The notes: a model not told the origin generated them from the letters alone. DNA of 64,000 bases from Escherichia phage vB_EcoM_TH18 (ON075799), one strand, 5' to 3'. Shown: positions 1 through 38,723, counted from the first letter of the stretch. Translations and numbers: made by a program.

Positions 1-48
1 TATTTAATAGATCTTATAAGTTAGTTTAATTTGATCAGTTAGTATTGT

Positions 49-92
49 GTCCCCAAAACGGGGACATACCCATGTCCCTGAAATGGGGACAT
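49..92. repeat. Two tandem near-identical GC stem-loops (TGTCCCC-AAAAC-GGGGACA and TGTCCCT-GAAAT-GGGGACA)
   Basis: Read directly; they lie downstream of the minus-strand gene ending at 134; no clear U-tract. Confidence 0.4.
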
Positions 93-133
93 ATGGGAGA
101 CTACGTGAGTTAGCCTCCCTGTGTGGGTAAATT

Positions 134-568
134 TTACTCTTCTGGTGTATCCCAATCGAGATGATTATGGAGAAACTTCCTCACGTACTCCCTTGCATCC
201 GTTTCTTGTGTGTGGTCATCTGCCCACATTTTAGCCACATTCCCAGCCGCTTCGTAGAGTTCCCTCTCAAAAGCGGTTAGTCCTGGGAGAATATTTACCA
301 AGAGTTTTTCACTCTCTGAGATATTTTGTGGGTCAAGTGTCATGCTGGGGTCAATTAAGGTTTTCCAACCAGACCCAGAAAATTTCTGTATTTCAAGAGA
401 TTTCCTTGTGCAACTTACAAAATATTTTGTGGTATCTTGTTTAAGCGACCCAAAAATAAATTTACCACCGTTCCAACTCTTCCATGATATATCTATAGAA
501 CACCCCAGAGACAGGAAGTGAATATCCACTAACATGTCGAAAACTTTTAATTTACTTTGCGTGCTCAT
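134..568 (-). CDS. hypothetical protein
   Basis: 144-aa ORF, overlaps start region of next minus gene in operon-like fashion. Confidence 0.5.
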   Translation of the reverse strand: MSTQSKLKVFDMLVDIHFLSLGCSIDISWKSWNGGKFIFGSLKQDTTKYFVSCTRKSLEIQKFSGSGWKTLIDPSMTLDPQNISESEKLLVNILPGLTAFERELYEAAGNVAKMWADDHTQETDAREYVRKFLHNHLDWDTPEE

Positions 569-1988
569 CTAAATTTACAGCCCTTCCAAAAGGTGGTACA
601 AATTTATTATTTCCGCGACCACAAATAACCCAAAGAATATCCCATTTGCGTCCCCAATCTTTTTTCTTGTGGCTTAAATCCTCTATATATCCGTCTGTAA
701 AAATAATAACGTCTTTTGCATCAAAAATGTTATTTTCAATATACTCAAAAGCTGATGCTGCAAGAGTCCCACCAGTGGAATTTACTTTATAATCAAGCAT
801 TTCCTTAATATTTTCGTGTGTATAAACTTTAACCTCTCCGACTTTTGTTGACCAACAGAACAATGTCACGCGAAAAACTCGGTAAAGCTGGCATAATCCT
901 ACAATTTCTCCGAAGATTTTGTCTAAATTTGCCTTCGAAATTGATCCAGATACATCGAAGCCAATAACTATATCTATAGTATTATCGTACTCTCTTCCTG
1001 GTAAAACGATATGCTGTTTTTTGCCGATAGCTCCGTACTGTCGAAGTGCCTGTGTCATAGATCCAGACCTACGAGATGGCTTCCTGTATGTCAGGTTAGA
1101 CTTAATCCGAGAAAGCATACGCTGTTTGATTATCTGAAGATAATTTATGTGTGGTTTACGCATCCTCGCAATAACGTCACGTACCTCTTTCGGCCCCTCT
1201 CCTCCCGCTGCTTCCATTGCTGCTTCGATAAGACCAGATGACCACGACATATTATCATCTTTTTCTGCCTGGTTTGGCACTGGGTGAGGATCTTCATATC
1301 CCAGGGTATTACTGTCCTGATCATAATCCCCTATGTGTGTACCCATAGGTTTGCCAATAGACGGTTGGCCTTTGTTTATGAGACTGTAAATCTCCTCTGC
1401 TGTCATGCCGTGGAAATTAAAATCACAATAGCAATAAGCCATAAACCCAAACTCTTTATCTTTGTCAAAGGTTGTCTGTTTCCCTGTTGGGAAGAAACAC
1501 ATCTGGGTTGAGCGCGGTCCGAGATCAGACACCACCAAATCTGTATTGATATAGTGATCCGCTGCTGTGTTGTAGGTTTTAGAATCAAATGCCTTTCCAC
1601 GGGATAGATGGTCATTTGTAATATGACGTAGCTCGTGCATAAGAATAACAACAACCTCTTTGGGTGTCTTCTTACGGTAAAATACGTTCACATAGTCTTT
1701 ATAGTCATCTTTGTCTTGTTGAGACATTGTTGGGTGGTTATCCACACGTTCAAATACCTTCTTTTTCCTTTCTTCAGGCATACCCATAATAAACTCAGGG
1801 TTGAAGTAGAGGTTTTTGTGATCAGTGGCTGCTGTTGGCAACCATTTCCAGTTCGCAACTAAAGGAAGAGAACTTAACAAAGTACCGTAGAATGGTCGGT
1901 ACTTTAAAAGAGCTATTCGTGCAGATTGGATAACTTTTACAGCATCCTTCTCTAATCTGGCAATCATTTCATATTCGTCTTTTTGCAT
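552..1988 (-). CDS. vWA-domain protein with N-terminal HExxH metallopeptidase-like domain (CobT-like partner of MoxR/CobS ATPases)
   Basis: 'HELRH' zinc-binding-like motif and 'DVSGSIS' MIDAS (DxSxS) motif; RBS GGAGA upstream of ATG. Confidence 0.65.
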   Translation of the reverse strand: MQKDEYEMIARLEKDAVKVIQSARIALLKYRPFYGTLLSSLPLVANWKWLPTAATDHKNLYFNPEFIMGMPEERKKKVFERVDNHPTMSQQDKDDYKDYVNVFYRKKTPKEVVVILMHELRHITNDHLSRGKAFDSKTYNTAADHYINTDLVVSDLGPRSTQMCFFPTGKQTTFDKDKEFGFMAYCYCDFNFHGMTAEEIYSLINKGQPSIGKPMGTHIGDYDQDSNTLGYEDPHPVPNQAEKDDNMSWSSGLIEAAMEAAGGEGPKEVRDVIARMRKPHINYLQIIKQRMLSRIKSNLTYRKPSRRSGSMTQALRQYGAIGKKQHIVLPGREYDNTIDIVIGFDVSGSISKANLDKIFGEIVGLCQLYRVFRVTLFCWSTKVGEVKVYTHENIKEMLDYKVNSTGGTLAASAFEYIENNIFDAKDVIIFTDGYIEDLSHKKKDWGRKWDILWVICGRGNNKFVPPFGRAVNLDEHAK

Positions 1989-2007
1989 AATTATTCTCCA
2001 TACAAAA

Positions 2008-2031
2008 ATAGGCTATCTTTCGACAGCCTAT
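2008..2031 (-). terminator. possible intrinsic terminator/attenuator between minus-strand genes
   Basis: 7-bp stem ATAGGCT/AGCCTAT with extra inner pairs, followed on minus strand by TTTTTGT. Confidence 0.3.
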
Positions 2032-2039
2032 TATACTTG

Positions 2040-2303
2040 TTATTTTTTACTTGTAAATAATTCTATGGTATCAAGCGGCATAAAATTATTACCGCCAGTT
2101 AATCTAGCACCCCATACAGGAACTTGCTTTCTTGGTGGTTGGCTTGGGAACATAAAAAGTACGATAGCTTCTACAGAAGTTTTAATGTTCTTTGCATTTT
2201 TATAACGAACCCTATCACCAACTTTAAAATTTGGTTTATTTCCAGATTCAATCATCTGGGCTTCTTGAAGGGTAGCTGGTCTCCCAAGAATTTCTTCAAA
2301 CAT
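2040..2303 (-). CDS. hypothetical protein
   Basis: 87-aa ORF. Confidence 0.45.
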   Translation of the reverse strand: MFEEILGRPATLQEAQMIESGNKPNFKVGDRVRYKNAKNIKTSVEAIVLFMFPSQPPRKQVPVWGARLTGGNNFMPLDTIELFTSKK

Positions 2304-2499
2304 ACATTTTTACCTTTAATTTCTTGTTACCGATATTCCACCAACTTATAGCACTAAGCTCACTCAGCGCGTGGGGTCCAGAAGTCCCGCATTTCTGACA
2401 ATAAATGTAGTGGAAAACTGTTTGCCCAGAGCGTTTCTGTTTAAGCAAAAGTGCATCATTTTTACAAAATGGGCACGGTTTTGGTAGAAAATCTTTCAT
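2296..2499 (-). CDS. Lar-like zinc-ribbon protein (putative restriction alleviation)
   Basis: 67 aa, 'PCPFCKN...CQKCG' CxxC...CxxC pattern typical of Lar family. Confidence 0.4.
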   Translation of the reverse strand: MKDFLPKPCPFCKNDALLLKQKRSGQTVFHYIYCQKCGTSGPHALSELSAISWWNIGNKKLKVKMYV

Positions 2500-3296
2500 T
2501 AAACCACCTTATTCAGCATAGCTGTGATTTTTGGTAAACTCATTTTCGTATTGATCATGAGTTGTGTTAATGCTGTTTCCATCTTTTCAGAAACAATAAT
2601 AAAATTATCTTTTGCGAACCCTAGTTCCAAATCCATAATAAGAATAGGTTTTGGTGTTTTTGTTAACTTTTCGCCTGTTAGAGAACAGGTGTTTCTTGAA
2701 TATTTAGCCTTAAATTGTGCATAAGTAACGCTAACATTCATACCTGCTTCTGCAAATGTTTTGCAGTAGTTTGCGTATGCAAGTGCAATCTCAACATCAT
2801 CAGGAAGAGATTTTTCTTTCATCTCTTCAACCTGCTCATCAATAATTACATTCTCTGTCTCTTTCATATCTTTTTCCGTAGGTATATATTTCAGTTTTAA
2901 CTTTTCCAGATGGTCTTTTGACATATTCAACATCATTCCTTGGACGATATCCATGTCAAGCGGATCTGCAATCGTTAGAGCTTTCTTTTTGTCTACAAGA
3001 AAATCTTTTAACTGGTTTGCTCTCTTACCGACTACACAAACGTTTCCACGAACATACCCTTTTTTGTCATCTATTCGTTCCACAGATGGGTAGAGAGGGT
3101 CATTAGGTGTTGCAGAAAAAGGTAGGCCTGTGTAATCACAAACACCTTTCCCAAGTAATCCTTTACCCATCATAAACCAGTCATCTTCTGTCAGATTAAA
3201 CTCTATACCCCTTGCTTTGGTATTTCTCTTTTTGAAAAAGAGTCGTGTTTTGAGATGCCTTATCTCTTTGGTTGTAAACTCTTCATTCCAGTCCAT
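2499..3296 (-). CDS. putative homing-endonuclease-like protein (HNH-type variant), free-standing
   Basis: motif 'GIEFNLTEDDW...CDYTG...PSVERIDDKKGYVRGNVCVV' resembles phage HNH-family nucleases; assignment from memory. Confidence 0.3.
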   Translation of the reverse strand: MDWNEEFTTKEIRHLKTRLFFKKRNTKARGIEFNLTEDDWFMMGKGLLGKGVCDYTGLPFSATPNDPLYPSVERIDDKKGYVRGNVCVVGKRANQLKDFLVDKKKALTIADPLDMDIVQGMMLNMSKDHLEKLKLKYIPTEKDMKETENVIIDEQVEEMKEKSLPDDVEIALAYANYCKTFAEAGMNVSVTYAQFKAKYSRNTCSLTGEKLTKTPKPILIMDLELGFAKDNFIIVSEKMETALTQLMINTKMSLPKITAMLNKVV

Positions 3297-3360
3297 ACAG
3301 AATATCTCTGTCGCTTAACTTGTGTTCGTAGTATCTCACAAATTTTCAGTTTGTCAAGTG

Positions 3361-3389
3361 TTGACTTTGATTTTTTAGTTCTGTACATT
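3361..3389 (+). promoter_or_regulatory. sigma70-like promoter for rightward early block
   Basis: TTGACT-N17-TACATT in divergent intergenic region 3297-3425. Confidence 0.4.
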
Positions 3390-3425
3390 CCCCAGAGTTA
3401 ATGAAAGTTTTCTTAGAGGCCAGCT

Positions 3426-4292
3426 ATGATGAAGAATCTGACGGATTATGAAGGGTGTTTTTATTTTGATGACTATCTGCGCTCCACGAGATCTAATAAA
3501 ATAGATTTTGATTATGGTGGGGTATTCCGTGAAGCCCTTATAAGGGAAGTTGAAAGTCACCAACATGAACCAAACCCTTTAATGGAAATCGTAAAACATG
3601 CTCTACTTATGTGTTTTGATACCCGAGATAGGGAATGTTACTGGAAATATTATGTTGAAGCTGACGAGCGTGCTCACATGGCAAGTGTAAACTTAAAGCA
3701 TGAGTTTCCAAGATATGATGTTACTTGTGGGCAAATAACAATCTCTTTCCGAGGCTTTAATTATGGCATGTGTTTAGCAGGATCATTGTCTGCACGAACA
3801 CAAAAATTCCTGTCTGTTTTGTCCCGATTGGGGCATTGGGATGGTAATATGTTTTCCATAAAGGCTTCCTATGTTAGAACAAGCTCGGATATTCTCCGCA
3901 TCAGGGAGATTAACTCCAGTTGCGGATCCTTTTTTCTGGCAGGTTGTTATGGAATGCTTTACCAAAGCAAGATGTATGATTATGCAGGTCATGCTGCAAT
4001 TAAGATAACCAACACGCCAAGCGTAGAGAATAAGAAATCGCACTACTACTTGGTGTGTAATACCCAAGAAGTAATGTATCATCGTGTTGTAGAAAAAGAA
4101 CTAAAAGAGCTTATCTTGGGAGAGATCCCTACCCAGGAGGAACGCTTAATGATAGAGATGGCTGGGTACAAAGGAGAATTTTTTCTTGATTCTCTTGTAG
4201 ATTTTGATAATATCGGTATAAAACCCTTTAATATGAAAGAGGCATATGAATGGTACAATCGAAGTCTGTCCCCAGTAACATTCAAGATTTAA
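3426..4292 (+). CDS. hypothetical protein
   Basis: 288-aa ORF, RBS AGAGG upstream. Confidence 0.55.
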   Translation: MMKNLTDYEGCFYFDDYLRSTRSNKIDFDYGGVFREALIREVESHQHEPNPLMEIVKHALLMCFDTRDRECYWKYYVEADERAHMASVNLKHEFPRYDVTCGQITISFRGFNYGMCLAGSLSARTQKFLSVLSRLGHWDGNMFSIKASYVRTSSDILRIREINSSCGSFFLAGCYGMLYQSKMYDYAGHAAIKITNTPSVENKKSHYYLVCNTQEVMYHRVVEKELKELILGEIPTQEERLMIEMAGYKGEFFLDSLVDFDNIGIKPFNMKEAYEWYNRSLSPVTFKI

Positions 4293-4561
4293 GACCTCAT
4301 CAGGAGTTGGCTTTAGCTATAAAGTTGGCCTCTGAAAACCATCTTAAGCAGAAAGATCGTGGTGGAATGCCATACATTCTTCACCCATTAAGGGTGATGC
4401 ATGAACTTGGTAATGATGACCTACAGCTAATGGCAATTGGTGTCCTTCACGATATTCTTGAGGATACTAAAATTACAGCTTACGATTTGGTAAGGTTAAG
4501 GAAATACCATGAAATGCATCTTAAACTTGTTGATGCAAGAAAAAGATTTGAGGGGAAATAA
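4250..4561 (+). CDS. SpoT/Mesh1-like HD-domain protein (small alarmone-hydrolase-like), short form
   Basis: 'PYILHPLRVMHELG...LMAIGVLHDILEDT' matches the RelA/SpoT HD hydrolase signature; start uncertain (overlaps previous ORF). Confidence 0.5.
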   Translation: MVQSKSVPSNIQDLRPHQELALAIKLASENHLKQKDRGGMPYILHPLRVMHELGNDDLQLMAIGVLHDILEDTKITAYDLVRLRKYHEMHLKLVDARKRFEGK

Positions 4562-4776
4562 TGAATGTTTATCAACCACATCCATTTGATCCAAAGAACA
4601 AAGCGGTGATCCACAGAGAATGGGTGGAGAGAAGGAAAACAAACTGCCCTGTTAAAGGTACAGAGGATTACAATAGGTTTTACACAGCAAAGTTTGTTGA
4701 GTATACCTTTATTAACAAAAAGGGTAAGAAAGTGCATGTTGCAGAATACCCTTTATGGATAAAATGGGAGGATTAG
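4561..4776 (+). CDS. hypothetical protein
   Basis: 71-aa ORF, start overlaps upstream stop. Confidence 0.45.
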   Translation: MNVYQPHPFDPKNKAVIHREWVERRKTNCPVKGTEDYNRFYTAKFVEYTFINKKGKKVHVAEYPLWIKWED

Positions 4777-4777
4777 G

Positions 4778-4990
4778 ATGTATTGTAAACAGCAATATAC
4801 CCACAAAGGGACAATCCAAAACAAAGATTTCGGTTGGGTGTGGGAAGAAAAGTTAAAAGATGAAGGAAACTATTGGGTATCTCAAGATATGCACTCCGCA
4901 TCGGGTAAGAAGGCAAAATACCGTAAGAGAGACGGTAAACGAGTGGGTGGTGATGATTATCTTGATTTAGAATCTATTAAGGAGTTGTAA
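4778..4990 (+). CDS. hypothetical protein
   Basis: 70-aa ORF. Confidence 0.4.
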   Translation: MYCKQQYTHKGTIQNKDFGWVWEEKLKDEGNYWVSQDMHSASGKKAKYRKRDGKRVGGDDYLDLESIKEL

Positions 4991-4991
4991 A

Positions 4992-5348
4992 ATGGCACAG
5001 TGGAAACATCGACTTGATTTACGTGATATCTGGAAAGGTAATCCAGTAGAAGGTAAGGTAGAGCCTTGGGCAGATGATAATATTCACCTGTTTGTAGATA
5101 TGCTTGTAAAAAGAGTAAAACGACTTTTACCAAAGCAAACTGATGAAGAGAATGCTGACTTCGATGGGTGGTTGTATGATATTCTTGAAGAAATGCAGCA
5201 TATCCTCACATATGAAGAATATTTGGAAATCTGTAGCAAAGAGGATAACCCCAACCTTATCGTGAGTCCTCTACAGCAGTTCAATCTGGCCTTGGATGAG
5301 TTCTACGACTGGTGCGATGAAAACAGAGTTTGGGTGGATAAGTGGTAA
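4992..5348 (+). CDS. hypothetical protein
   Basis: 118-aa ORF. Confidence 0.5.
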   Translation: MAQWKHRLDLRDIWKGNPVEGKVEPWADDNIHLFVDMLVKRVKRLLPKQTDEENADFDGWLYDILEEMQHILTYEEYLEICSKEDNPNLIVSPLQQFNLALDEFYDWCDENRVWVDKW

Positions 5349-5584
5349 AACCTCTTGATTTTTCAGAGAGAGCGGAGTATTTAAAAACCGTTGTTAGAGC
5401 GAGGATGACACGACGACAATGGTTTTTAGTTTTTGGTGCAGAAAGAGTAGATAATTTTTCTGCCAAAGACCTTGCATCAAGCATTATCAATCTGTATGCT
5501 GATATTGAATCAGCAGATATAGACAGTATCATTGAAAGTTATCTTGAGCAGAAGAACGATTTAAGGAACGAGACGAATGTCTAG
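5342..5584 (+). CDS. hypothetical protein
   Basis: 80-aa ORF. Confidence 0.45.
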   Translation: MVKPLDFSERAEYLKTVVRARMTRRQWFLVFGAERVDNFSAKDLASSIINLYADIESADIDSIIESYLEQKNDLRNETNV

Positions 5585-6785
5585 TAGAAATATTTTTGAA
5601 GATCATCGTGTTACACTCCGTGATATTCCAAGCCTTATGAAATTTTGTAAGAAGGCAAACAAAGCACTTATGATGTTTGGTGGTGCTGGGCTTGGTAAGA
5701 GTCAAGTCATGAAGCAAGTTGCCAATGAGATGTTTGGTGAACGAGATGATAATCTCGTTGATTTTCGTCTTGCGGATAAAGATCCGACAGACGTAGTAGG
5801 TGTGCAGATTCCTGTAACAGACGATAATGGGAAAACACGTACAGTCTATGCGCTACCAGATTTCTGGCCAGAAGATCCAGATTGGGAAGGCATCATTTTC
5901 CTTGATGAACTTTTACATGCTGATAACTACTTACAGAAAGTGGCTTTCCAGATTGTTTTGGATCATAAAATTGGTAAGTACACCTTTCCAAAAGGCGCAG
6001 TTTTTGCAGCGGCAGGAAACCGTCCTGGTGATGGTACGGCAGTGACCATGATGGAAGCACCTTTGGCTAACCGTTTTATTGTTGTGGAACTTGATTACGA
6101 TGCCTCTGTGTGGATGCAGGATTATGCGTTGCGTAAAAATGTGCATCCATCAGTAATTGGTTTTATCCAGGCCAATCCCGATAAACTGGAAAACTTTGAG
6201 GCCATGTATGAGATTAACAGCCCTGCATATGCCACACCACGCACTTGGGTTACTGCAAGTGATATTCTGTATGCGTATGAGGATGGTGATCTTACTTCTC
6301 GCCTTGCAATGGCTGCTTTGCAAGGGTGTATTGGTGGGCCATTAATGAAAGAGTTATGGTATTACCATACTCGCGTTGCTGGTATGGTTCCCATTGAGAA
6401 AGTAATGGACGGTTCAATTAAAGAGCATACTGGGTCTGATAGCTCTGATGTGTTGTGGACGTTAGGATCACAGGGTTGCATCTGGCTACGTAAGGCTATG
6501 AAGAATACCAACTACACAGATGATCAGATTATTGACTTCTCAGCCAATTTCTTGCAATATCTGTATGATAACTTTGGTAAAGATGATGCTCATTCCAACC
6601 GTGATTTTGTATCATCTGTCTTCATGACGTTTATTAATGACAGCTCTACAGGGAAGGGTATTTTGTTAGATGGTCTTCGTGACAGACTGCCAGCGAAGTT
6701 ACTTAAGAAGTATCCTGTTGTTATGCAGATTATTACTGAATATCATAAGAACTTTGCAAAAGATGTAGATGCAATTTTAAATTAA
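5577..6785 (+). CDS. CobS/MoxR-like AAA+ ATPase
   Basis: Walker A 'GGAGLGKSQ', Walker B 'IIFLDELLH'; size and layout of phage CobS-like ATPases. Confidence 0.7.
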   Translation: MSSRNIFEDHRVTLRDIPSLMKFCKKANKALMMFGGAGLGKSQVMKQVANEMFGERDDNLVDFRLADKDPTDVVGVQIPVTDDNGKTRTVYALPDFWPEDPDWEGIIFLDELLHADNYLQKVAFQIVLDHKIGKYTFPKGAVFAAAGNRPGDGTAVTMMEAPLANRFIVVELDYDASVWMQDYALRKNVHPSVIGFIQANPDKLENFEAMYEINSPAYATPRTWVTASDILYAYEDGDLTSRLAMAALQGCIGGPLMKELWYYHTRVAGMVPIEKVMDGSIKEHTGSDSSDVLWTLGSQGCIWLRKAMKNTNYTDDQIIDFSANFLQYLYDNFGKDDAHSNRDFVSSVFMTFINDSSTGKGILLDGLRDRLPAKLLKKYPVVMQIITEYHKNFAKDVDAILN

Positions 6786-6826
6786 TAGCAGCAGCCTTAA
6801 TGTCTGCTTTTTATAAGGATACCTAA

Positions 6827-7243
6827 ATGAATGATAGGTGGATAAAAACACCCAATGGTGTTGAAGATCTTGATATTGGTAGATGGCTTGTCGTCTTGGC
6901 AGATGGTGAGATCGGCATTTGTGAATCCTATCAAGGCCATAACAGTATTGTTCATGTCATCAACGGATCTTTCTACTTTGATTGTGAACCTGTTATTGCT
7001 TACATGCCAATTCCAGCTATCAGTGATCTTCTGAAAGATCATCTTAAAACAGAGGCTAATTTTAAGACCGCTGGGGCTAAGGTGATGGATCTTGATGATT
7101 GGAATTTCGGTGTCCAAGCGGCTATTTACAGCCCTGAAGATGGAAATGGATACTGGTGTCCTAACGATAACTATGAATCTGACGTTTCCGTGTGGGATAA
7201 AAAACCAGACTGGGCGACACATGTGGTATGGTATAACCGTTGA
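6827..7243 (+). CDS. hypothetical protein
   Basis: 138-aa ORF. Confidence 0.5.
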   Translation: MNDRWIKTPNGVEDLDIGRWLVVLADGEIGICESYQGHNSIVHVINGSFYFDCEPVIAYMPIPAISDLLKDHLKTEANFKTAGAKVMDLDDWNFGVQAAIYSPEDGNGYWCPNDNYESDVSVWDKKPDWATHVVWYNR

Positions 7244-7419
7244 TGACAAAACATAAGTTTAAGAAAGACCAGCTACATGAGAAATGGTGGTTTGAGAGAT
7301 CCGATATGGTTATGGCTGGGTACACCTATAAAAATAGGCGTGTGTTTGTTGTTTGTGCTAAAAATAAAAGCGAGGCATTGGAAAGTATGAATGCCTTCCT
7401 TGAAAGGAGTTGTGAATGA
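7243..7419 (+). CDS. small ORF (58 aa), not in ORF track
   Basis: ATG overlaps upstream stop (TGATG) and its stop overlaps next ATG (ATGA); fills an otherwise empty 170-bp gap. Confidence 0.3.
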   Translation: MTKHKFKKDQLHEKWWFERSDMVMAGYTYKNRRVFVVCAKNKSEALESMNAFLERSCE

Positions 7420-7598
7420 AGGTTAAAATGATTTCTGATTTTTCCGATGTTGCTGGATATCCAAAAACAGGAGATATTCTTGAAGTAAGAGAAGAAATCT
7501 TTAATGGTAGTTTTCTTGAGTGTTACTCTTGCGAATGGAATGGGAAAAGACTTGATATCTATCCATACGAATGCGAAGAGGTATCAGACAATGCTTAA
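7416..7598 (+). CDS. hypothetical protein
   Basis: 60-aa ORF, translationally coupled. Confidence 0.4.
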   Translation: MKVKMISDFSDVAGYPKTGDILEVREEIFNGSFLECYSCEWNGKRLDIYPYECEEVSDNA

Positions 7599-8112
7599 GT
7601 ATAAAGTTGGTTGCTTAATAGAGGCAGCACTTAAAAGGGATGTTAATGTGATAGCTCATGGTTGTAATACATTTTGCACCATGGGGTCTGGAATTGCTAA
7701 AGAAATAAAGAATGCATTCCCAAAAATGTATGCTGAAGATTTAAAGACAGAGAAAGGTGATCGAACAAAACTGGGCAGTTATACTTGGGCTGTCATGAAC
7801 GAAGGTAAGCTGGCGGGTTTTAATTTGTACACACAATACGGCTATAATGGGCGTAGAATGGGTGTTAGAGATTTAAATTATAACGCCCTTTACGATTCTT
7901 TAGCAGCAATGCGAGATTGTTTGCAAAGGCACACAGATGGCTTTATGTCTGATTATAAGATCGGGCTGCCAAAAATAGGTGCTGGGCTAGCAGGTGGGGA
8001 TTGGAAAATCATAGAAACTATGATAGAATCTGTTCTCCATGATTGTGATGTGACAATTTATGTTTTAAATAAAGAGGAGATCCCAGATGGCAAAAGAGAA
8101 CATGCATCCTGA
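7591..8112 (+). CDS. macro-domain protein (ADP-ribose binding/hydrolase family)
   Basis: 'VNVIAHGCN...MGSGIAKEI' and 'IGLPKIGAGLAGGDW' macro-domain signatures; ATG at 7591 with GAGG RBS. Confidence 0.65.
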   Translation: MLKYKVGCLIEAALKRDVNVIAHGCNTFCTMGSGIAKEIKNAFPKMYAEDLKTEKGDRTKLGSYTWAVMNEGKLAGFNLYTQYGYNGRRMGVRDLNYNALYDSLAAMRDCLQRHTDGFMSDYKIGLPKIGAGLAGGDWKIIETMIESVLHDCDVTIYVLNKEEIPDGKREHAS

Positions 8113-8281
8113 TATTGCTTACGATAAAATTGCGGAAGCAATTAAAAGTATTGACCCAAAAATTGTAGATGTGCTGGATCGTAAAGATGCTATGAGCGCA
8201 ATTTATGACGCTTGCTATGAAGTTCTGTGGCAAGATGGTATGGAAGATATTGACGAGGTAGGGGCCAATGATGGAGAGTAA
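8087..8281 (+). CDS. hypothetical protein
   Basis: 64-aa ORF. Confidence 0.4.
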   Translation: MAKENMHPDIAYDKIAEAIKSIDPKIVDVLDRKDAMSAIYDACYEVLWQDGMEDIDEVGANDGE

Positions 8282-8654
8282 ATCTGTGACAGGCTTATCG
8301 AAAGATACATATATTTGTGGGAAGAGATATGCTGGTATCCTGTTTGGTGCTGAACCCTATTTTGGTTTTGGTTATACAAAAGATGTTCGATGCATTTGTG
8401 GATACTTAGCAGATGATCTCAAAAAGCGTGGATTTAGTGGTTCTAGTATCAGGACTTCTGTTGTCGAAAGTCTGATTATGCACGATGGAGAAATCTATGC
8501 TATTACGATGAACAGCGCCTATCGCTTAGGTAGCCTTCAATTACAACATTTTATCTCCAGTCCTGTGTGGAGTCAGGAAATCACGAAACTTCTTGCCCAG
8601 GCAACTCTTGGTGTGACTTTTATTAATAAGGAAGATAGTAATGCAAGCAACTAA
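8268..8654 (+). CDS. hypothetical protein
   Basis: 128-aa ORF. Confidence 0.45.
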   Translation: MMESKSVTGLSKDTYICGKRYAGILFGAEPYFGFGYTKDVRCICGYLADDLKKRGFSGSSIRTSVVESLIMHDGEIYAITMNSAYRLGSLQLQHFISSPVWSQEITKLLAQATLGVTFINKEDSNASN

Positions 8655-9675
8655 GTACCCAAGCACTAGTCAATTTCGCAATGTTATCCGAGCGGTTAAT
8701 GACCGTCTGACTTATGATGGTCGTGATGAGAATGGCAATATAAAGCGTAAGGTTGCCTCTCCAGATCAATATCTCATTTCTTATGTAGGAACAGTTAAAA
8801 TTCACGGGACTAATTGCCGTGTAGTCTTTAATTCTGAAAATGAGGTTGTATACCAGTCCAAAGAACGCGTTTTGTCTTTGGAGGAAGACAATTATGGGTT
8901 TATGGCCTTTATGGTTGAAAAAGACCATAAACCCCTGCTGGGGCAAGTCAAGCAGATCTGCGAAGATCGGGGTATTGAATTTAAGTTCCCAGTAGAAATC
9001 GCTGGGGAATTTGCAGGGAAAGGTATCCAGAAAGGTGTTGCGGTATCTGAAATCATGCCTTTCTTTACTATTTTCCGTGTTGCAGTGGGGAAAGAAAATG
9101 ACCATCGGAAATGGCTAGCTTTAGACGATATTCTTGGCATTGGATTACCAGAACAACGTATTTATAATATTTTAACTTTTGGTAAGTGGGAACTGGATAT
9201 TCCTTTTAACATGCCAGAGACAGTGCAATCAGAAATTGCACAGATTACCGAAGGTGTGGAAAAAGAGTGCCCAGTAGGTAAATATTTTGGCGTATCTGGT
9301 GTTGGTGAGGGTGTGGTATGGACACCTAAAGATCGTCACTTGGCACATGTTTCTTCACTTTGGTTTAAAGTGAAAGGGCAAAAACATTCTGTCTCTAAAG
9401 TGAAAACCCTAGCTGCTGTTGATCCTGTGAAACTGCAATCTATCAAAGATTTTGTGGAGTATGCAGTTACTGAGAACCGTTTACGACAAGGGTTGCAAGA
9501 AATTGGATTGGACATCGCATCTCTGGGGGCATTTATCGCATGGGTTAACCGCGATATCAACAAAGAAGAAGCAGATGTGCTGGAAGCCAACTCTCTTTCT
9601 ATGAGAGATGTGGCGAAGTTCACAACAAACAAAGCCCGTAGTTGGTATATGGAACAACTTAACGAGGTGTCTTAA
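8641..9675 (+). CDS. RNA ligase, Rnl2-like (nucleotidyltransferase)
   Basis: motif I 'KIHGTN', motif IV 'EGVVW', motif V 'FKVKG'. Confidence 0.7.
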   Translation: MQATKYPSTSQFRNVIRAVNDRLTYDGRDENGNIKRKVASPDQYLISYVGTVKIHGTNCRVVFNSENEVVYQSKERVLSLEEDNYGFMAFMVEKDHKPLLGQVKQICEDRGIEFKFPVEIAGEFAGKGIQKGVAVSEIMPFFTIFRVAVGKENDHRKWLALDDILGIGLPEQRIYNILTFGKWELDIPFNMPETVQSEIAQITEGVEKECPVGKYFGVSGVGEGVVWTPKDRHLAHVSSLWFKVKGQKHSVSKVKTLAAVDPVKLQSIKDFVEYAVTENRLRQGLQEIGLDIASLGAFIAWVNRDINKEEADVLEANSLSMRDVAKFTTNKARSWYMEQLNEVS

Positions 9676-18230: not shown

Positions 18231-21158
18231 ATGAAGATTACAAAATGGGGGGCTGGTGCATACTTTGAAGGTGAGAACCCAAAAGCATTCCGTCCTGAAC
18301 GAAAAAGTGGTGGTAAAGTGAATTATCAGAAAAAAGAAGAAGAAACCGTAGAGTCTGTCCTAGATAGCACAAGGATCCTGGCTGTCCCCCAAATGGATAT
18401 TAGTTTAGATGCAGCTAAGTACTTTAAGATCAGATCTGCAACAGATTTGAAAGACGGCACTACAGTAGTGGCAACATATCTTCCATATTATGACAAATAT
18501 GGGAAATTGACAGGGTACAAGAAACGAGACTGGTCTGTCCCAAAAGAAAAAAAAGGTCATTTCTCTGTTGTTGGCACAGTGAAGGCCTCCTCTCAATTTT
18601 TTGGGCAACATGAAGCCGCTATGGGATCTGGTAAAAAACAGATCTTTATTGTTGAGGGGGAGGGTGATGTAACGGCTGGCTGGCAAGCTGGGTTTGAGTA
18701 TATTAAATTTCTTCATAGTAATCCTAATACGTCACGTTCAGTACGTGAGTGGGCAAGTAATGCTTTAAAAGGCATCAAAGCCATTCAGGATGGCGAAGAG
18801 GTTTCTAATTGCCCGACATTACCTTTTATCGGGTTGAACTGTGGAACAGCCAATGCGGTGGATACATTTGCCCACAACGAAAAGTTTATCAGGGAATATG
18901 AAAAGATTGTCCTTGGTTTAGACAATGATGAAGCCACAGCAAGGGAAAAAGAACACAGAATTAAGAAAGGTAAGGAAGCCACAGATGATGTTGCTAGTTT
19001 TTTGTTGTCTGACAACATCTATGTTGCACGATACCCGAATGAACGCAATGACCCAAATGGTGTTAAAGATATCCGGGATATTTACAAAAAAGGTAAGTGG
19101 ATGGATATCTGGAACATGTTTGCTAAAGCGCAGGATAAATATGTTCCTGACAAATTGATTGGGTTGGAGAGAATATCTATTGAAAATCTCCGTAAAAAGA
19201 AAAAAGATGGCGTTCCGTTGCCTTGCTTTCCTCGTTTGTATGAACTAACAAGAGGCCCACGAACAGGAGAATTGTGGACACTGACAGGCCCATCTGGAGC
19301 TGGGAAATCAACTTTCTCAAGAAAGATTGAATACGCAATTATCGAGTACCTCCGTAACATGGATATTCCCCGACTAGACGGATGGAAAGAGAACGAGAAG
19401 ATTGCAATTATCCGTCTAGAGGAGGATGAAGAGGAGTCTGTAAACAGTCTATATGCTGAGGAGTTAAAAATTGACCCGAAAGCATTTGTTGCAGACCCAG
19501 AGCAATTTCTTACCGATGAGCAGCACTTAGCGATACACCAACGGTGGATTGCCGAAGATAAGGTTAAAATTTTTGACCACTTTGGTTCAATACCGACTGA
19601 CCAATTGCTACAAAAATTGAAACAGATGGTTTTCCTTGATGGGTGCAGATGGATTATCTTAGATCACTTGTCGATGGTAATATCAGGATTAAAATCTGAT
19701 AACGAGCGAAGAGATTTAGATAACATCATGACGGAATTGGCTGCCTTCTGCAAAAAATATGACGTGTTTATCCTCAGTATCAGCCATATGAAGCGTAAAG
19801 AGATACAGATTCCAAAAGATAAGGATGGTAATCTCTTACCATTTTGGTATCCTGTGCGGAAAGAGGATCTTCGTGGTTGTCTTAACGGTTATGTAGAGTT
19901 CCTTACACCAGAAGGTTGGGTGCAGTTAAAAGACTACACACCGGGACAAAAAGTGGCACAGTGGGCAGACGGGGAGATATCTTTTACTGACGATGTTGAG
20001 CACATTAGACTTGAATGTCGAGAGGATATGTATGCATTCCGCAATTCAAGTTTTGAGATGACTGTCTCTGGAGAGCATCGTGTTCTACTGGATGTGGGGG
20101 GTGAGAAACAAGTTCTCACTGCGGAAGAGATTGCTAAACTGGCAAAATACGCTAGTTTTAAAGAACGATCTTCTATTGTCAGACATTACAGTGCTGGCAA
20201 TTTCCAGACATCATTAACAGAATGGCAAATCCGCGCCATGGTGATGTTTGCCGCTGATGGATGCTATCACAGCAATGGTTTGTGTAAGATGGAATTAAGA
20301 AAAGAGAGGAAAATAGAAAGAGCAACTAAAATTCTTGACAAACTTGGCGTGCATTATTCTCACGCAGTAAATAAAAGAGGGAACACAACCTTCAGGACTA
20401 AGGCATTGACAGAGAAAAAACCTCTACATCTATGCCATAATTGGTTTATTGAACCAAGCCATACCCTCAAAATTCTACTGGATGAGGTGTTCTTGTGGGA
20501 CGGTAGCGATAAAGGTGATAAGGGAAGAGAGTTTACTTCTAAGTATCGAGAAGAGTGTGATGTTGTTCAACACGCTGCTCATGCGAATGGAATGAGCACA
20601 AAACTCTACTCACGAACAGTAAATGGTGTTACATACTACACATTAAGTGTGTATCGGGAAGGTTCTTGTAAAAATAAGACATCTTTACGATCTCTTAAAC
20701 TGGAGAGAGAGCCTTCATGGGATGGATATAAATACTGCTTCAAAGTACCATCCAGCTATTTTGTTGTTCGACAAAACGGTGTGGTGTTCGTCACAGGAAA
20801 TAGTGCAGCACTCGAGCAGTTATCATGGGTTGTATTAGGTGTTGAACCTGAAGAACTCCCTGATCGCTCTCGTGGGCGTATTCGTAGCGTTGTAATGAAA
20901 AACCGTCCACATAAAAAATTAGGTATAGCGGATACTCTGATTATGGATGATAATGGTCAGTTTTCTGATGCATCTGGTTGGGTGTGGGAAGATGGTATGT
21001 TTAAACTTAATGGGGAGGTAATGCTAAGACCTAAATCAATGATTCAAAGTCTGGAACTTGAAACACCTGTGGGGAAAATTGCTGTTTCTGTTCCTCAACA
21101 AGAACCTGCTGTTGTTATTGAGCAACCTGAAGATTTAGATAGCGATTCTCCATTTTGA
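18231..21158 (+). CDS. primase-helicase (T7 gp4-like; Toprim + DnaB-family helicase) containing an intein
   Basis: 'EGEGD'/'DND' Toprim-like, Walker A 'GPSGAGKST', Walker B 'IILDH', helicase motif H4 'DLRG/SAALEQ' interrupted by a 308-aa insert. Confidence 0.7.
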   Translation: MKITKWGAGAYFEGENPKAFRPERKSGGKVNYQKKEEETVESVLDSTRILAVPQMDISLDAAKYFKIRSATDLKDGTTVVATYLPYYDKYGKLTGYKKRDWSVPKEKKGHFSVVGTVKASSQFFGQHEAAMGSGKKQIFIVEGEGDVTAGWQAGFEYIKFLHSNPNTSRSVREWASNALKGIKAIQDGEEVSNCPTLPFIGLNCGTANAVDTFAHNEKFIREYEKIVLGLDNDEATAREKEHRIKKGKEATDDVASFLLSDNIYVARYPNERNDPNGVKDIRDIYKKGKWMDIWNMFAKAQDKYVPDKLIGLERISIENLRKKKKDGVPLPCFPRLYELTRGPRTGELWTLTGPSGAGKSTFSRKIEYAIIEYLRNMDIPRLDGWKENEKIAIIRLEEDEEESVNSLYAEELKIDPKAFVADPEQFLTDEQHLAIHQRWIAEDKVKIFDHFGSIPTDQLLQKLKQMVFLDGCRWIILDHLSMVISGLKSDNERRDLDNIMTELAAFCKKYDVFILSISHMKRKEIQIPKDKDGNLLPFWYPVRKEDLRGCLNGYVEFLTPEGWVQLKDYTPGQKVAQWADGEISFTDDVEHIRLECREDMYAFRNSSFEMTVSGEHRVLLDVGGEKQVLTAEEIAKLAKYASFKERSSIVRHYSAGNFQTSLTEWQIRAMVMFAADGCYHSNGLCKMELRKERKIERATKILDKLGVHYSHAVNKRGNTTFRTKALTEKKPLHLCHNWFIEPSHTLKILLDEVFLWDGSDKGDKGREFTSKYREECDVVQHAAHANGMSTKLYSRTVNGVTYYTLSVYREGSCKNKTSLRSLKLEREPSWDGYKYCFKVPSSYFVVRQNGVVFVTGNSAALEQLSWVVLGVEPEELPDRSRGRIRSVVMKNRPHKKLGIADTLIMDDNGQFSDASGWVWEDGMFKLNGEVMLRPKSMIQSLELETPVGKIAVSVPQQEPAVVIEQPEDLDSDSPF
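19878..20801 (+). mobile_element. intein (308 aa) in helicase motif H4
   Basis: begins Cys 'CLNGYVEFLTPEGW', ends '...VVFVTGN' followed by Ser; flanks rejoin to 'DLRG-SAALEQ' (cf. DnaB 'DLRESGSIEQ'). Confidence 0.6.
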
Positions 21159-21256: not shown

Positions 21257-21353
21257 AGAAACATATGTCAAAAATAGGCAGTTTTCCACATAATCTATAA
21301 CCAACTAAGAGATGGGCGACGATACAGTCAAGCCCATCTTGAATAGGAGGAGT

Positions 21354-23390
21354 ATGAAAGGACTTTTTTTAGCCGATACAGAGGCTGATGGATTATTAGA
21401 AGAGGCAACTAAATATCACTGCACACTTTTTAAAGAATATGCTGTAAATAACTGGGTGTTGTTTCTCGATCCTGCTCACAAGGAATATCAGAGTGCAGTT
21501 AATTTTGCACGCAGCAAGGAAGGTGTTAATTTACGAATCCTTTCTTATGATGATTTTTACTCTTGGTTACAGACCGAACCAAGAGGGATAGCAATACATA
21601 ACCTGTTCGGCTATGACTTACGCCTGTGGAAAAAACTTTCTGGGATTGAATATGATATGTTCAAAGACCCAAAATGCATGGGGACGATAGGTAATAAACA
21701 GGTAAATCTTTACGACACTCTTTCAATGAGTCGTGTTCTTTACCCAGACCGCCCATTGCCTAATGGCTGCCCAGACTCTGTATTGAACCCTGTAACAGGA
21801 AAACGTGACAGGGTTGGGCCACACGGCTTATTGGCATGGGGTTATCGTGTAGCAAACAAGAAAGTGCAGATTGATGATTGGCGTAATCAGCCATTGTGGG
21901 AATATGTAAACCGTGTATGGGAAGACGTTATCATTAACGAACTTGTGTGGAAAGCTCTTATTGATGAGTCAAATGGTACGCGATGGCCTGATGACAAGCA
22001 GTTTATGTATACTGATAAACCTCACGGGATGCACCAGATTAATTGGAAAAATGCATTACGTAGGAGAATGCTCACAGACTATTTGATGATAGAGCAAGAA
22101 ATACAGGGTGTATACTTTAATCGGGAGGAGGCAGAAAAATTAAGAGATCGCATAGATAAGATGATGCGAGAAATTGAAGAAGAGGTAGAACCACTTCTTC
22201 CAAAAAAAGAGATGACGAAATCCCAACAACCAAAATTCCCAGCTAACCCTTTTGACACAGCGGGCAATATATCTCATCATGGGTGGAATTGGTTGGAATA
22301 TAAACTTGGCTATCCTGTTAACAGAGAAGCTCTGGAGTTCAAGGCTCCACCAAAAACAGCCTTTAAGAGTAACGGGGATGTAAGTGCAGCAGGGGAGAGA
22401 TATTGCATCCAGAATGGCATTGAAGATCCGGCTTTATACGGTGATTTCATTCGTTCCCAGCGAACCAAAGAGAACACACTCGAACCTTTACCGCCAGATC
22501 TTCTAGAGAAGGCTAAAGAAGACCTTCGAAATAGAAAAATGCCAGATTTAATGGTTCCAATGAAAATCTCTAATCAAGATGATATTAAAAAATATTTGAT
22601 CAAAGATGCTGGTTGGAAACCTACACTGTGGCGTGTAAAAGATGTTACTAAGGATCAATTTAAAAAGGCCCGTGAAGATTCTGAAATCGATGTACTAGTT
22701 AAGAAGTACATAGAAGAGTTGGCAGAATCTGAATATAAATCTCTTATTCTTGAATACCTTAATGATTCAGATGAGAAATTCAACATTTCAGAACGTAAGT
22801 TTGACCATCGCCATGCATCTGAAAGGGGTTATTCAGAGATATTTAAGAAATTTCGGCGCAAGGCACGCCAGTTACCGACATCTCCTCAACTAAAAGATAA
22901 TTTTGGGCATCTGTGCCCAAATCTGGAGAAAATTGATGTGCATATGGCAAAACAGATTGTTAAGTGGCTATCACTTCGTAACAGGCGATCTGTTTTAGAC
23001 CCAATGGATGAGGATAAGACGGATACAGGGTTATTAAATCACCCTCGTTTAGACATTGACGGAAAACTCCCAGCACGTTTTTCTGGAATCACTAACACGG
23101 GCAGGTGCAAGCATACTGTTTGCGCAAACATGCCCAAGCCTGATCCGAAGGTCTTGTTGGGAAAAGAAATGCGGGGTCTTTGGACAGTCCCTGAAGGCTA
23201 CTACCTGATGGGTTGTGATGGATCTAACTTAGAAGGTATGATTGCCGCAGCAGGAGCTTTTGAGTTTGATGGCGGTGAATATTTACGTATCATGATGGAA
23301 GAGGATGCCCATGAACGAAATGCAAGAGCATACACAATAGCCGCAGGAAAGGAGGTAACACGCTCTGGAGGAAAGGGGATTACGTATGGT
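21354..23390 (+). CDS. DNA polymerase (family A, T7 gp5-like) exon 1: 3'-5' exonuclease + polymerase motifs A and first half of B
   Basis: N-term 'MKGLFLADTEADGLLEEATKYHC' like T7 gp5 'DIEANALLESVTKFHC'; motif A 'CDGSNLE'; ends '...RSGGKGITYG' then stops in all frames; ATG 21354 with AGGAGG (ORF-track start 21312 less likely). Confidence 0.7.
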
Positions 23391-24124
23391 TAATGATAGC
23401 CCCCTTACAAAGTAATTTGTAAGGCGCACCCATTGAATTGCTGGGAAGTCTGACCGAGTTATGTCGAAGATAATCAGCAGGTAAGCGAATGCTTCCCTCT
23501 TACAAAAGGAGGGAGAATATGAGTACATTTTGTTGTATAATCTGCGGTGAGCAATGTGTTAAAACTGGTAAAAATCAAAAAGTATGTCTCTCTGAAGGCT
23601 GTAAAAGAGAATATCCAAAGATAAAAACCAGAGAATATAGACGCAGAAAGGCCGAAAAAGAAAATAGGCTTGATAGAGTTGGCATAGGAAAAGGTGGTGG
23701 GCAACCTTGTGGAAAATTGTCCAAATTTTATAAAAATGGTATATCGATGTTTCGTAAGTTATCCCCTGTCATAAAGGAACAGAGAAGATACTGTAATAGA
23801 TGTAATAAAGATCTTCTTTATGCAGGTAAGGATGAATGGTGCGTTCATCATATTGACCATGACAGGACGAATAACGAAATAAGTAATTTTGAATTACTTT
23901 GTAAAAAATGCCATCAAATAGAACATAAATGTTGGGAAGCATTCGAAACTTCAACGACTAGCCGAAAGGCGTAGGGCCAAGCGGTGAGGGAAACCTCCAG
24001 TCTTTTAGACTGCCGAAGCGGTGGGCATCCTGAAAAGGATGAAGATATAGTCTGATCTGCATAGAAATATGTAGCAGTTCCTAAGAGGACGGGCATGGTG
24101 TAGCGAGCCATGTTGAACAATATG
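23391..24124 (+). mobile_element. group I intron 1 (with HNH ORF)
   Basis: splits motif B ('...ITYG | IMYGAQAPKIA'); upstream exon ends in T, insert ends in G; shares 'AATTGC-GGGAA' and 'GATATAGTCTGA' elements with intron 2. Confidence 0.55.
23519..23974 (+). CDS. HNH homing endonuclease (intron-encoded)
   Basis: 'CVHHIDHDRTNNEISNFELLCKKCHQIEH' HNH motif with zinc-binding Cys pairs; RBS AAGGAGGG. Confidence 0.65.
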   Translation: MSTFCCIICGEQCVKTGKNQKVCLSEGCKREYPKIKTREYRRRKAEKENRLDRVGIGKGGGQPCGKLSKFYKNGISMFRKLSPVIKEQRRYCNRCNKDLLYAGKDEWCVHHIDHDRTNNEISNFELLCKKCHQIEHKCWEAFETSTTSRKA

Positions 24125-35926: not shown

Positions 35927-35936
35927 AAGAATCTCC

Positions 35937-36200
35937 TTATTGGTCTGACTCTTCTCTACGTTGTGATTCTACACCCCAGCGTAGGGATATTAACTTACTT
36001 ATTAACTGTGGAGCAGCCACTGTGGGGGCATACACCCACATATACCACTCCGTTAATGTGCCTTTGAAACCCCAATCTAAAAAAACTGCTGTCATTGCAG
36101 CTAATCCGATATTACTCCAAAATTTAGTGTGGGAGGCCTTTTCTGGATTTACTGGGGATCTGACAAGATCTTTTAAAAATTTCAATATTGATTTTAGCAT
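35937..36200 (-). CDS. small membrane protein (holin-like topology)
   Basis: 87 aa, hydrophobic segments then charged C-terminus 'ESQRREESDQ'. Confidence 0.4.
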   Translation of the reverse strand: MLKSILKFLKDLVRSPVNPEKASHTKFWSNIGLAAMTAVFLDWGFKGTLTEWYMWVYAPTVAAPQLISKLISLRWGVESQRREESDQ

Positions 36201-36215
36201 AATACATTAGAATCC

Positions 36216-36689
36216 TCAATAATTTACTCCAGGAACAATTCTGGCTATAATTATGAAACCAACAACAACAGAAGTCTCAAGCAATTCTTTTATTGTACCG
36301 CTTTTGTATGCGGCGCATAATAAAAGAACTTCCATAAATGTTGGATATGATGAATTTATCGTGAAGCCTAATGCGTTTGGTAAAATAAATGGGAACTGCA
36401 TAACTAAAATTTGGCAAAACAGAACAGGAAGAGATAGTACAAGCATTAGCTTTTTTCTCCATCCTGTCAAAACACATGCAGTAAAGAAAATCAGAGATAT
36501 ATCAAGGAACCAACAGAAAGTTAGGTAGAGTGACAAGTCAAATGCGTAGATATGGTAACAGAACCACCAGTATAATATATTCTCTGACACGATATGAACC
36601 ATGCCAAATACTGACATGGCTCGGATCCCCTTATCATTATCAAGAAGTAGCACTGCAAAGCATATAAAGTACAGTGCAGAACTTATCAT
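36216..36689 (-). CDS. polytopic membrane protein
   Basis: 157 aa with about four hydrophobic helices. Confidence 0.5.
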   Translation of the reverse strand: MISSALYFICFAVLLLDNDKGIRAMSVFGMVHIVSENILYWWFCYHIYAFDLSLYLTFCWFLDISLIFFTACVLTGWRKKLMLVLSLPVLFCQILVMQFPFILPNALGFTINSSYPTFMEVLLLCAAYKSGTIKELLETSVVVGFIIIARIVPGVNY

Positions 36690-37000: not shown

Positions 37001-37011
37001 TCTTTAGCTCC

Positions 37012-37596: not shown

Positions 37597-37613
37597 GCAA
37601 CTCTCCTGAATGA

Positions 37614-38708: not shown

Positions 38709-38723
38709 AAAAGTATCTCCTTC

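Follow-up and report, generated by a model that had tools for sequence, protein, structure and literature searches.

In the window analysed here, the whole 64,000-nucleotide stretch of Escherichia phage vB_EcoM_TH18 (ON075799), two genes lying between positions 552 and 6,785 encode the putative partners of a MoxR-type chaperone-like system. One product carries a zincin metallopeptidase-like domain fused to a von Willebrand factor A (vWA) domain, and the other is a predicted AAA+ ATPase of the MoxR class. The two genes are divergently transcribed, with 3,588 bp between the start of the vWA gene at 1988 on the minus strand and that of the ATPase gene at 5577 on the plus strand, so that the vWA gene does not adjoin its MoxR ATPase gene in the window. 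An earlier note on this DNA had described a vWA/metallopeptidase-like protein and a 'CobS/MoxR-like' ATPase that are divergent and about 3.6 kb apart, a layout that our coordinates reproduce, and had proposed separate regulation or rearrangement of a chaperone-like pair. The features of the two genes are as follows.

552-1988, minus strand: zincin-vWA fusion protein of 478 residues, N4 gp25-like partner of the ATPase (open reading frame, ORF, and Pfam)
1608-1637, minus strand: codons of the zincin HExxH motif HELRH (H118-E-L-R-H122) and of a further conserved histidine, H127
1557-1559, minus strand: codon of D144, invariant in homologs
942-956, minus strand: codons of the MIDAS (an adhesion site dependent on metal ions), D345-V-S-G-S349 (alignment)
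765-767 and 693-695, minus strand: codons of the further MIDAS residues T408 and D432, respectively (alignment)
5577-6785, plus strand: predicted MoxR-class AAA+ ATPase of 402 residues, N4 gp24-like (PHROG 1297)
5679-5702, plus strand: Walker A of the ATPase, GGAGLGKS (G35-S42)
5802-5852, plus strand: helix-2 beta-hairpin insert (H2i), residues 76-92 (AlphaFold2 model)
5892-5909, plus strand: Walker B, FLDE at residues 108-111
5967-5984, plus strand: pre-sensor-1 hairpin, residues 131-136 (AlphaFold2 model)
6012-6023, plus strand: sensor 1, N148 with R149
6063-6077, plus strand: LANRF motif with R166, arginine finger
6237-6242, plus strand: sensor 2, P221-R222

The product of the minus-strand gene is what the earlier note had taken it for. 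It matches Pfam DUF2201_N ('putative metallopeptidase', E 2e-20) in its N-terminal part and DUF2201 ('VWA-like', E 3e-10) in its C-terminal part, both above the gathering score, and has a sub-threshold match to VWA_CoxE as well. In an alignment of 25 diverse homologs, with identities down to ∼22%, no variation is seen at H122, H127 and D144; H118 and E119 are constant across all phage-type members, and three bacterial sequences have KQALH instead. The MIDAS is complete, with D345, S347, G348, S349, G407, T408 and D432 invariant in the 25 homologs. The family profile aligns the MIDAS stretch with the MIDAS of the integrin alpha-X I-domain (E 1.5e-4), and a profile of the HExxH stretch gave a weak match to the minimal metallopeptidase MJ1213 (E 0.059). 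The protein has both the Rossmann-like fold of vWA domains and the zincin HExxH motif with further metal ligands. A conserved segment at residues 296-335 (YRKPSRR...P330), modelled with lower confidence, is a candidate contact element for the ATPase. We would like to point out that this protein is mislabelled 'HNH endonuclease' in the RefSeq records of Av-05, PVP-SE1, FV3 and CR3 by way of PHROG 1314, and that a single GenBank record names it 'DNA repair ATPase'.

The product of the plus-strand gene matches PHROG 1297 'ATPase' at 1.4e-104, and its sole Pfam match is weak and sub-threshold (bpMoxR, 0.0045). PF07726 (AAA_3, MoxR) and PF07728 (AAA_5) are present in distant homologs, and a search of the family profile against PDB matched the AAA domains of Midasin at 7e-23. 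In the AlphaFold2 model of the protein (mean predicted local distance difference test score 86.7), two hairpins are predicted, the helix-2 insert and the pre-sensor-1 hairpin; these two elements define this AAA+ clade (PMC13036017, PMC7159879). The strands 76-81 and 87-92 of the model lie between helix 70-74 and the Walker B strand 104-110, and the hairpin 131-136 precedes the sensor-1 strand 140-147. The top Foldseek matches of the model are CbbQ2 (6l1q, 3.7e-8) and NorQ (9qh8 and others, 6e-8). Since the homolog domains, the profile match to PDB and the predicted fold agree, we place the ATPase in the MoxR class (clade 7, AAA_5/AAA_3). Walker A, Walker B, N148/R149, R166 and P221-R222 are invariant in 27 homologs, consistent with an intact AAA+ core. 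Direct searches of PDB with the single sequence of either protein gave nothing useful, and NCBIfam holds no meaningful family for either.

Following the helix-2 insert, residues 93-103 of the ATPase (window 5853-5885) form a FWPxDPDW motif (P94, W97, P98, D100, P101, W103) that is strongly conserved in all Vequintavirinae-type ATPases and is not a standard AAA+ motif. It may form a pore entrance or a contact with the partner. The naming of this gene also varies between records: it is 'ribosomal protein uS19' in Salmonella phage SSBI34 and 'MoxR ATPase' in rV5-family records.

To place the divergent layout, we compared gene order across phages and bacteria. Bases 1-8000 of the window are 100% identical to Escherichia phage 18-1-2 (OK136180.1, partial genome; Avunavirus, Vequintavirinae) and 95% identical to phage Av-05. 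A tblastn search of 50,697 phage records found the zincin-vWA protein in 547 and ATPase-like matches in 823. Hidden Markov models from both alignments were then run against six-frame ORFs of loci around either gene, and the resulting phage sample for gene order consists of 45 genomes or contigs, in which the pair is divergent in 21, adjacent in 23 and far apart in one. Wherever the vWA protein reaches 45% identity or more to that of the window, the layout is divergent (21/21 genomes or contigs), with a gap of 3.4-5.1 kb. These 21 comprise 18-1-2, Av-05 and PVP-SE1-like, Klebsiella KB57-like, Erwinia Hena1-like and rV5/FV3-like phages. Their order on the ATPase side is rIIA - endolysin - ... 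Rnl2 - macro - ... ATPase ... HD - PHROG10920, and on the vWA side Srd-like - (PHROG10489) - vWA - (PHROG6790).

The more distant phage contigs are arranged otherwise. In all 23 of them, both genes are on one strand with the ATPase gene upstream, and the gap to the vWA gene is -1 to 1,582 bp. This adjacent type includes jumbo phages as well as CR3-like Certrevirus, a sister genus within the same subfamily. In CR3, HD, three ORFs, ATPase and vWA follow one another in this order right after a divergent point, which suggests that it was the vWA gene that moved and that the ATPase side remained where it was. In bacteria, a scan of species-representative genomes found the ATPase gene immediately upstream and on the same strand in 77/77 loci with enough upstream DNA; in one bacterial locus, an AAA_5 gene is followed by a homolog with both DUF2201_N and DUF2201. 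The expectation of the earlier note that MoxR ATPases sit beside their vWA partner is borne out by these bacterial loci and the 23 phage contigs.

As both the distant phages and the bacteria keep the two genes adjacent, adjacency would by parsimony be ancestral and the divergent layout the result of one old rearrangement. On this argument, the divergent layout would have arisen once, in the ancestor of core Vequintavirinae (the Avuna-, Seuna- and Vequinta-type, Klebsiella KB57-like and Erwinia Hena1-like phages). In this core group, the vWA gene is now found behind the Srd-like gene in the opposite unit, and the ATPase gene has been kept in the HD...ATPase...macro-Rnl2-rIIA unit. The rearrangement of a chaperone-like pair envisaged by the earlier note thus agrees with what we found, in that the families are cognate, their genes adjoin elsewhere and the layout is common to the 21 core Vequintavirinae genomes or contigs. 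Judged from gene order, the split appears to be lineage-wide and old, an ordinary gene-order variant that is neither peculiar to this phage nor a new system. Adjacency is the usual correlate of the MoxR/vWA family and not a biochemical requirement.

One Vequintavirinae-like contig, IMGVR_UViG_3300045988_163358, separates the pair by at least 35.8 kb, also on the assumption of a circular genome. Its Srd-like and vWA genes lie at ∼103.4-104.9 kb and its ATPase and rIIA genes at ∼4.2-5.4 kb. The 8 kb of genes upstream of the Srd-like gene are all on the strand of that gene, which points to a second, larger rearrangement. A 413-residue ORF upstream of the vWA gene of this contig was considered as a divergent ATPase and rejected, having no Pfam match while the true ATPase is encoded elsewhere on the contig. 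Megablast of this vWA locus against the phage collection gave no close match. In Pseudomonas phage Ettore (OR805294.1, 288 kb), the ATPase gene at 105361-106278 lies ∼3 kb from the vWA gene at 109314-110468, on the same strand, and the pair may have come apart on more than one occasion, with Litunavirus as a further candidate.

Whatever their distance, the two genes are found together: every sampled contig holding one gene of the pair holds the other (45 phage genomes or contigs). The identities of the two proteins to their window counterparts are correlated, with r = 0.97 over 39 loci.

A phage pair of a MoxR AAA+ ATPase and a vWA-metallopeptidase is already known from jumbo phages of group 2.2 (Iyer et al. 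2021, Viruses; PMC7824862). Our tblastn searches link the window proteins to the adjacent g208/g209 of jumbo phage fHe-Yen9-04, and the matched genes are annotated 'N4 gp25-like' (vWA) and 'N4 gp24-like' (ATPase) in N4-like phages. The N4 gp24/gp25-like pair has the same two families and the same N-terminal metallopeptidase-vWA fusion as the window pair. The differences are in gene order, as the pair described in the jumbo phages is adjacent on one strand whereas that of core Vequintavirinae is divergent, and in length: the vWA protein of Vequintavirinae, CR3-like phages included, has extra inserts at ∼68-110, 160-185 and 310-325, and the ATPase of the same phages has a longer C-terminus than N4/jumbo-type members. 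The bacterial operon of AAA_5 and DUF2201_N/DUF2201 ('predicted metal-dependent peptidase') encodes vWA homologs that are ∼22-25% identical over the full length, with the HExxH...H...D and MIDAS motifs conserved as in the phage protein; unlike the phage pair of the window, its genes are always adjacent in the sample, and some members have lost the HE of HExxH.

Other MoxR-vWA systems are more distantly related. NorQ-NorD and CbbQ-CbbO also pair a MoxR AAA+ ATPase with a vWA partner, for metal insertion into nitric oxide (NO) reductase and for Rubisco activation, respectively. These systems share only 13-18% identity with the phage pair, NorD and CbbO have no zincin domain, and relative to NorQ/CbbQ, the phage ATPase is extended at its C-terminus by a helical region of ∼130 residues. 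Their targets, cNOR and Rubisco, are irrelevant for a coliphage, and neither the NorD-type 'finger' nor its C-terminal contact was identified in the phage vWA protein; in NorQD, the partner docks on the ATPase ring by placing this finger in the pore and its C-terminus on the post-sensor-1 loop. In eukaryotes, Midasin/Rea1 carries six AAA_5 modules and a C-terminal MIDAS domain in one giant polypeptide that functions in ribosome biogenesis; its relation to the phage pair is one of family class only. Acidianus two-tailed virus likewise encodes a viral MoxR-vWA pair, but this is an archaeal virus and its pair has no peptidase domain. The MoxR-type ATPase and vWA protein of that virus act in tail development (cited in PMC7824862, PMC7159879). 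Our literature search found no explicit description of the Vequintavirinae split and no functional study of a phage member.

The genes and candidate regulatory sites around the pair are listed below.

134-568, minus strand: ORF of 144 residues (PHROG 6790), sharing its first 17 nt with the end of the vWA gene, an overlap also present in PVP-SE1
2007-2057, minus strand: promoter-like site TTTACA-16-TATAAT (11/12) that overlaps a terminator-like hairpin, within the 51 nt directly upstream of the vWA gene
2040-2303, minus strand: small conserved ORF (PHROG 10489, 1.7e-34), directly upstream of the vWA gene
2296-2499, minus strand: Lar-like restriction-alleviation ORF of 67 residues (PF14354, 9.1e-10, above the gathering score; PHROG 599)
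2499-3296, minus strand: Srd/anti-sigma-like, endonuclease-VII-like protein (PHROG 3118, 3.7e-94; PHROG 1400 'Srd anti-sigma factor', 6e-15)
3297-3425, no strand: divergent intergenic region of 129 bp, from which both units run outward, with back-to-back σ70-like matches
3357 to 3330, minus strand: σ70-like match towards the Srd-like/vWA unit, TTGACA-16-GATACT with TG
3361 to 3389, plus strand: σ70-like match towards the ATPase unit, TTGACT-17-TACATT
3426-4292, plus strand: opening gene of the unit on the ATPase side (PHROG 10920, with the label 'thymidylate kinase')
4250-4561, plus strand: HD/SpoT-like phosphohydrolase ORF (TIGR00691, 1.1e-11; PHROG 990, 3.3e-25)
5405-5584, plus strand: small ORF of 59 residues, whose end overlaps the ATPase start by 8 nt, with a small ORF in the same position in PVP-SE1 and FV3

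The Lar-like and HD/SpoT-like ORFs correspond to the anti-restriction-like and HD genes that the earlier note had seen between the pair, and several small ORFs besides these two and the Srd-like gene fill the interval. The Srd-like gene is the first of the vWA-side unit and stands ahead of the vWA gene in all core Vequintavirinae sampled; its product has no Pfam match. The N-terminal ∼100 residues of this protein match PHROGs for T4 Srd, the σ70 decoy, and for endonuclease VII, and its label differs by source: GenBank has 'anti-termination protein', RefSeq 'HNH endonuclease' and rV5 'anti-sigma factor'. The PHROG 10489 ORF is also found beside the vWA gene in the PVP-SE1, Klebsiella and Erwinia relatives. 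On the other side, the PHROG 10920 gene is conserved in position, yet just 26-27% identical between genera, and its product has no match in Pfam, NCBIfam or PADLOC. The two matches of the HD/SpoT-like ORF are both far below the full-length cut-offs. Compared with its counterpart in Av-05 (8171-8668 of the extracted locus), the gene has an in-frame deletion of 186 bp (62 residues), leaving 103 vs 165 residues. Two copies of a direct repeat of 10 bp, GATTTGGTAA, bracket the deletion exactly and point to slippage or recombination; the shortened product may be inactive.

Downstream in the ATPase unit are a macro-domain protein (DarG-like, NCBIfam 5.7e-10; window 7591-8112) and an RNA ligase of the Rnl2 family (6.8e-10; window 8641-9675). 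Both genes are conserved in PVP-SE1-, Klebsiella- and Erwinia-type relatives, and they may be a counter-defence set that combines reversal of ADP-ribosylation with RNA repair. Further along the unit come rIIA/B, helicase, ligase and DNA polymerase genes, and beyond these, on the opposite strand, lies the structural module. Both genes of the pair are placed in the early/replication part of the genome. A reading of the region as a defence island was dropped on finding that PADLOC matched no known defence-system component in the pair or two intervening genes. Tiny ORFs of this early region are annotated, for example, as 'tail protein', 'baseplate wedge subunit', 'exonuclease' or 'internal head protein'. 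In the polymerase region, the RefSeq record of Av-05 has three 'DNA polymerase' coding sequences interleaved with three of HNH endonucleases (77462-82318 of the record; 35463-40319 of the extracted locus), and the window counterpart has long ORFs of other sizes at 18231-21158 and 21312-23393.

Both units begin in the 129-bp intergenic region. The σ70-like match facing the vWA unit (10-11/12) has a positional equivalent in Av-05, PVP-SE1, a Klebsiella phage, an Erwinia Hena1-like phage and FV3, and the PVP-SE1 record annotates this site as a promoter. Towards the ATPase unit, the match is weaker, and not every genus yielded one. The hairpin directly upstream of the vWA gene has an 11-bp stem followed by a T-run; the gap at this point is 50 nt in PVP-SE1, and in FV3 the vWA gene adjoins its upstream neighbour with no gap. 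This site may be an internal regulatory point. As the two genes belong to two transcription units, separate regulation, which the earlier note had also suggested, is possible; the shared region with its back-to-back matches would fit co-timed early expression equally well. A literature search for Vequintavirinae transcription data yielded nothing usable.

We consider it likely that the two proteins are a phage cognate MoxR AAA+ ATPase/vWA-adaptor system, homologous to N4 gp24/gp25, that was split by an old rearrangement and still acts jointly, with an early target somewhat favoured. As the motifs of both proteins are intact and the genes always co-occur, the pair most likely still works together. 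How they might do so is suggested by analogy with NorQ-NorD, CbbQ-CbbO, RavA-ViaA and Midasin, drawing on cryo-EM of NorQD (PMC13036017) and a review of MoxR-vWA systems (PMC7159879). The ATPase would assemble as a hexameric ring on which the vWA domain docks. The Mg2+ site of the MIDAS would capture an acidic side chain of the target protein, which would be remodelled by ATP hydrolysis, and the fused zincin domain, which keeps an intact HExxH in all phage members of the alignment, would then probably cleave the captured protein or a neighbour. Since the genes are in the early/replication region and downstream of σ70-like matches, we lean to an early or middle intracellular target over virion assembly; a host or phage replication or takeover protein is somewhat more likely as the target, a preference that we hold with low confidence.

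Several points weigh against this interpretation. The physical interaction, the timing and the target are all inferred. The correlation of r = 0.97 is what would be expected for any two vertically inherited core genes, and the bacterial sample is taxonomically narrow, consisting mostly of Chromatiales-like Gammaproteobacteria. The contig with the genes at least 35.8 kb apart implies that linkage is dispensable, and the proteins could also act independently. The promoter scan of bases 1-8000 was not enriched, with 26 sites vs 23.6 in shuffled sequence, so that the promoter-like sites are leads only, backed by position and conservation. Moreover, the published proposal for the jumbo-phage homologs, virion assembly with proteolytic processing (PMC7824862), differs from our preference for an early target.

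That proposal competes with the early-target part of our interpretation and leaves the rest untouched. If the pair were a chaperone/protease for the assembly and proteolytic maturation of head or tail proteins, as put forward for the group 2.2 homologs and shown for the MoxR-vWA pair of Acidianus two-tailed virus, the small flanking ORFs in PHROGs labelled 'tail protein' would be in keeping with it. But these labels, on ORFs of 87 and 144 residues, are without support and were set aside as unverified, and the neighbours of the pair, in the early/replication region, are the Srd-like, Lar-like, HD, macro, Rnl2 and rIIA genes, with the structural module distant and on other units; both genes are downstream of σ70-like promoter matches. 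A role in virion assembly is possible, and we find it doubtful on this evidence. It is unlikely that the split has uncoupled the two proteins, so that they are no longer a pair and are separately regulated, with the zincin-vWA protein working by itself or through a MoxR ATPase of the host, RavA for example, and the phage ATPase serving another client. The different transcription units, the possible internal promoter and hairpin upstream of the vWA gene, the weaker and less conserved promoter match on the ATPase side and the one widely separated contig would all be consistent with uncoupling. It is difficult to reconcile, however, with the co-occurrence of the genes in 45/45 phage genomes or contigs, the invariance of all ATPase and MIDAS motifs, the stability of the divergent layout over at least five genera and the common origin of both units in one 129-bp region. 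Still less do we favour the view that the conserved position of the vWA-zincin gene directly behind the Srd-like gene, in an early unit driven by σ70 and opposite the ATPase, marks a change of role, in which the pair, or the vWA-protease alone, is an early device for host takeover or counter-defence. If true, the device would capture a host protein by its MIDAS and unfold or cleave it, a role that would be new among MoxR-vWA systems, and the split would let motor and adaptor differ in dosage or timing.

The identity of the families leaves far less room. Cobaltochelatase-like metabolic genes would share two features with the pair, as CobS too is an ATPase of the AAA_5 type and a vWA domain is found in CobT as well. 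In the window, neither Pfam nor NCBIfam gives the ATPase a CobS-specific match, and among solved structures its fold is nearest to CbbQ and NorQ; its partner differs from CobT in having an N-terminal zincin domain (DUF2201_N), and no CobN-like gene is annotated in the neighbourhood. We therefore rejected a CobS identity and regard a CobS/CobT system as very improbable: of the 'CobS/MoxR-like' label, the MoxR part is upheld by the homolog domains, the Midasin profile and the CbbQ/NorQ fold, and the CobS part falls away. That two unrelated families resemble a MoxR/vWA pair by chance, as the sub-threshold bpMoxR match of the ATPase itself would allow, is refuted by the agreement of homolog domains, profile-PDB search and predicted fold on the MoxR class, and by the fact that homologs of exactly these two proteins adjoin in 23 phage contigs and 77 bacterial loci. 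The profile searches and synteny comparison that the earlier note had proposed as checks have thus put both proteins in cognate MoxR-ATPase and vWA-partner families, and have revealed one conserved divergent layout in the lineage and adjacency in more distant phages.

Both families and the phage pair were known; what differs here is the gene order, which is common to a whole lineage of well-sequenced phages. The pair is widespread in phages, including N4-like phages, Vequintavirinae and jumbo phages used in therapy research. The comparison exposes mis-annotations of the zincin-vWA protein and the ATPase that have been propagated between records, and it matters for annotation pipelines and guilt-by-association searches that demand neighbouring MoxR and vWA genes. 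By itself, the natural split in rV5, Av-05 and PVP-SE1 reveals no new biology; it offers a convenient system for handling the two partners independently, and it indicates that adjacency is dispensable for the pair in one large phage lineage.

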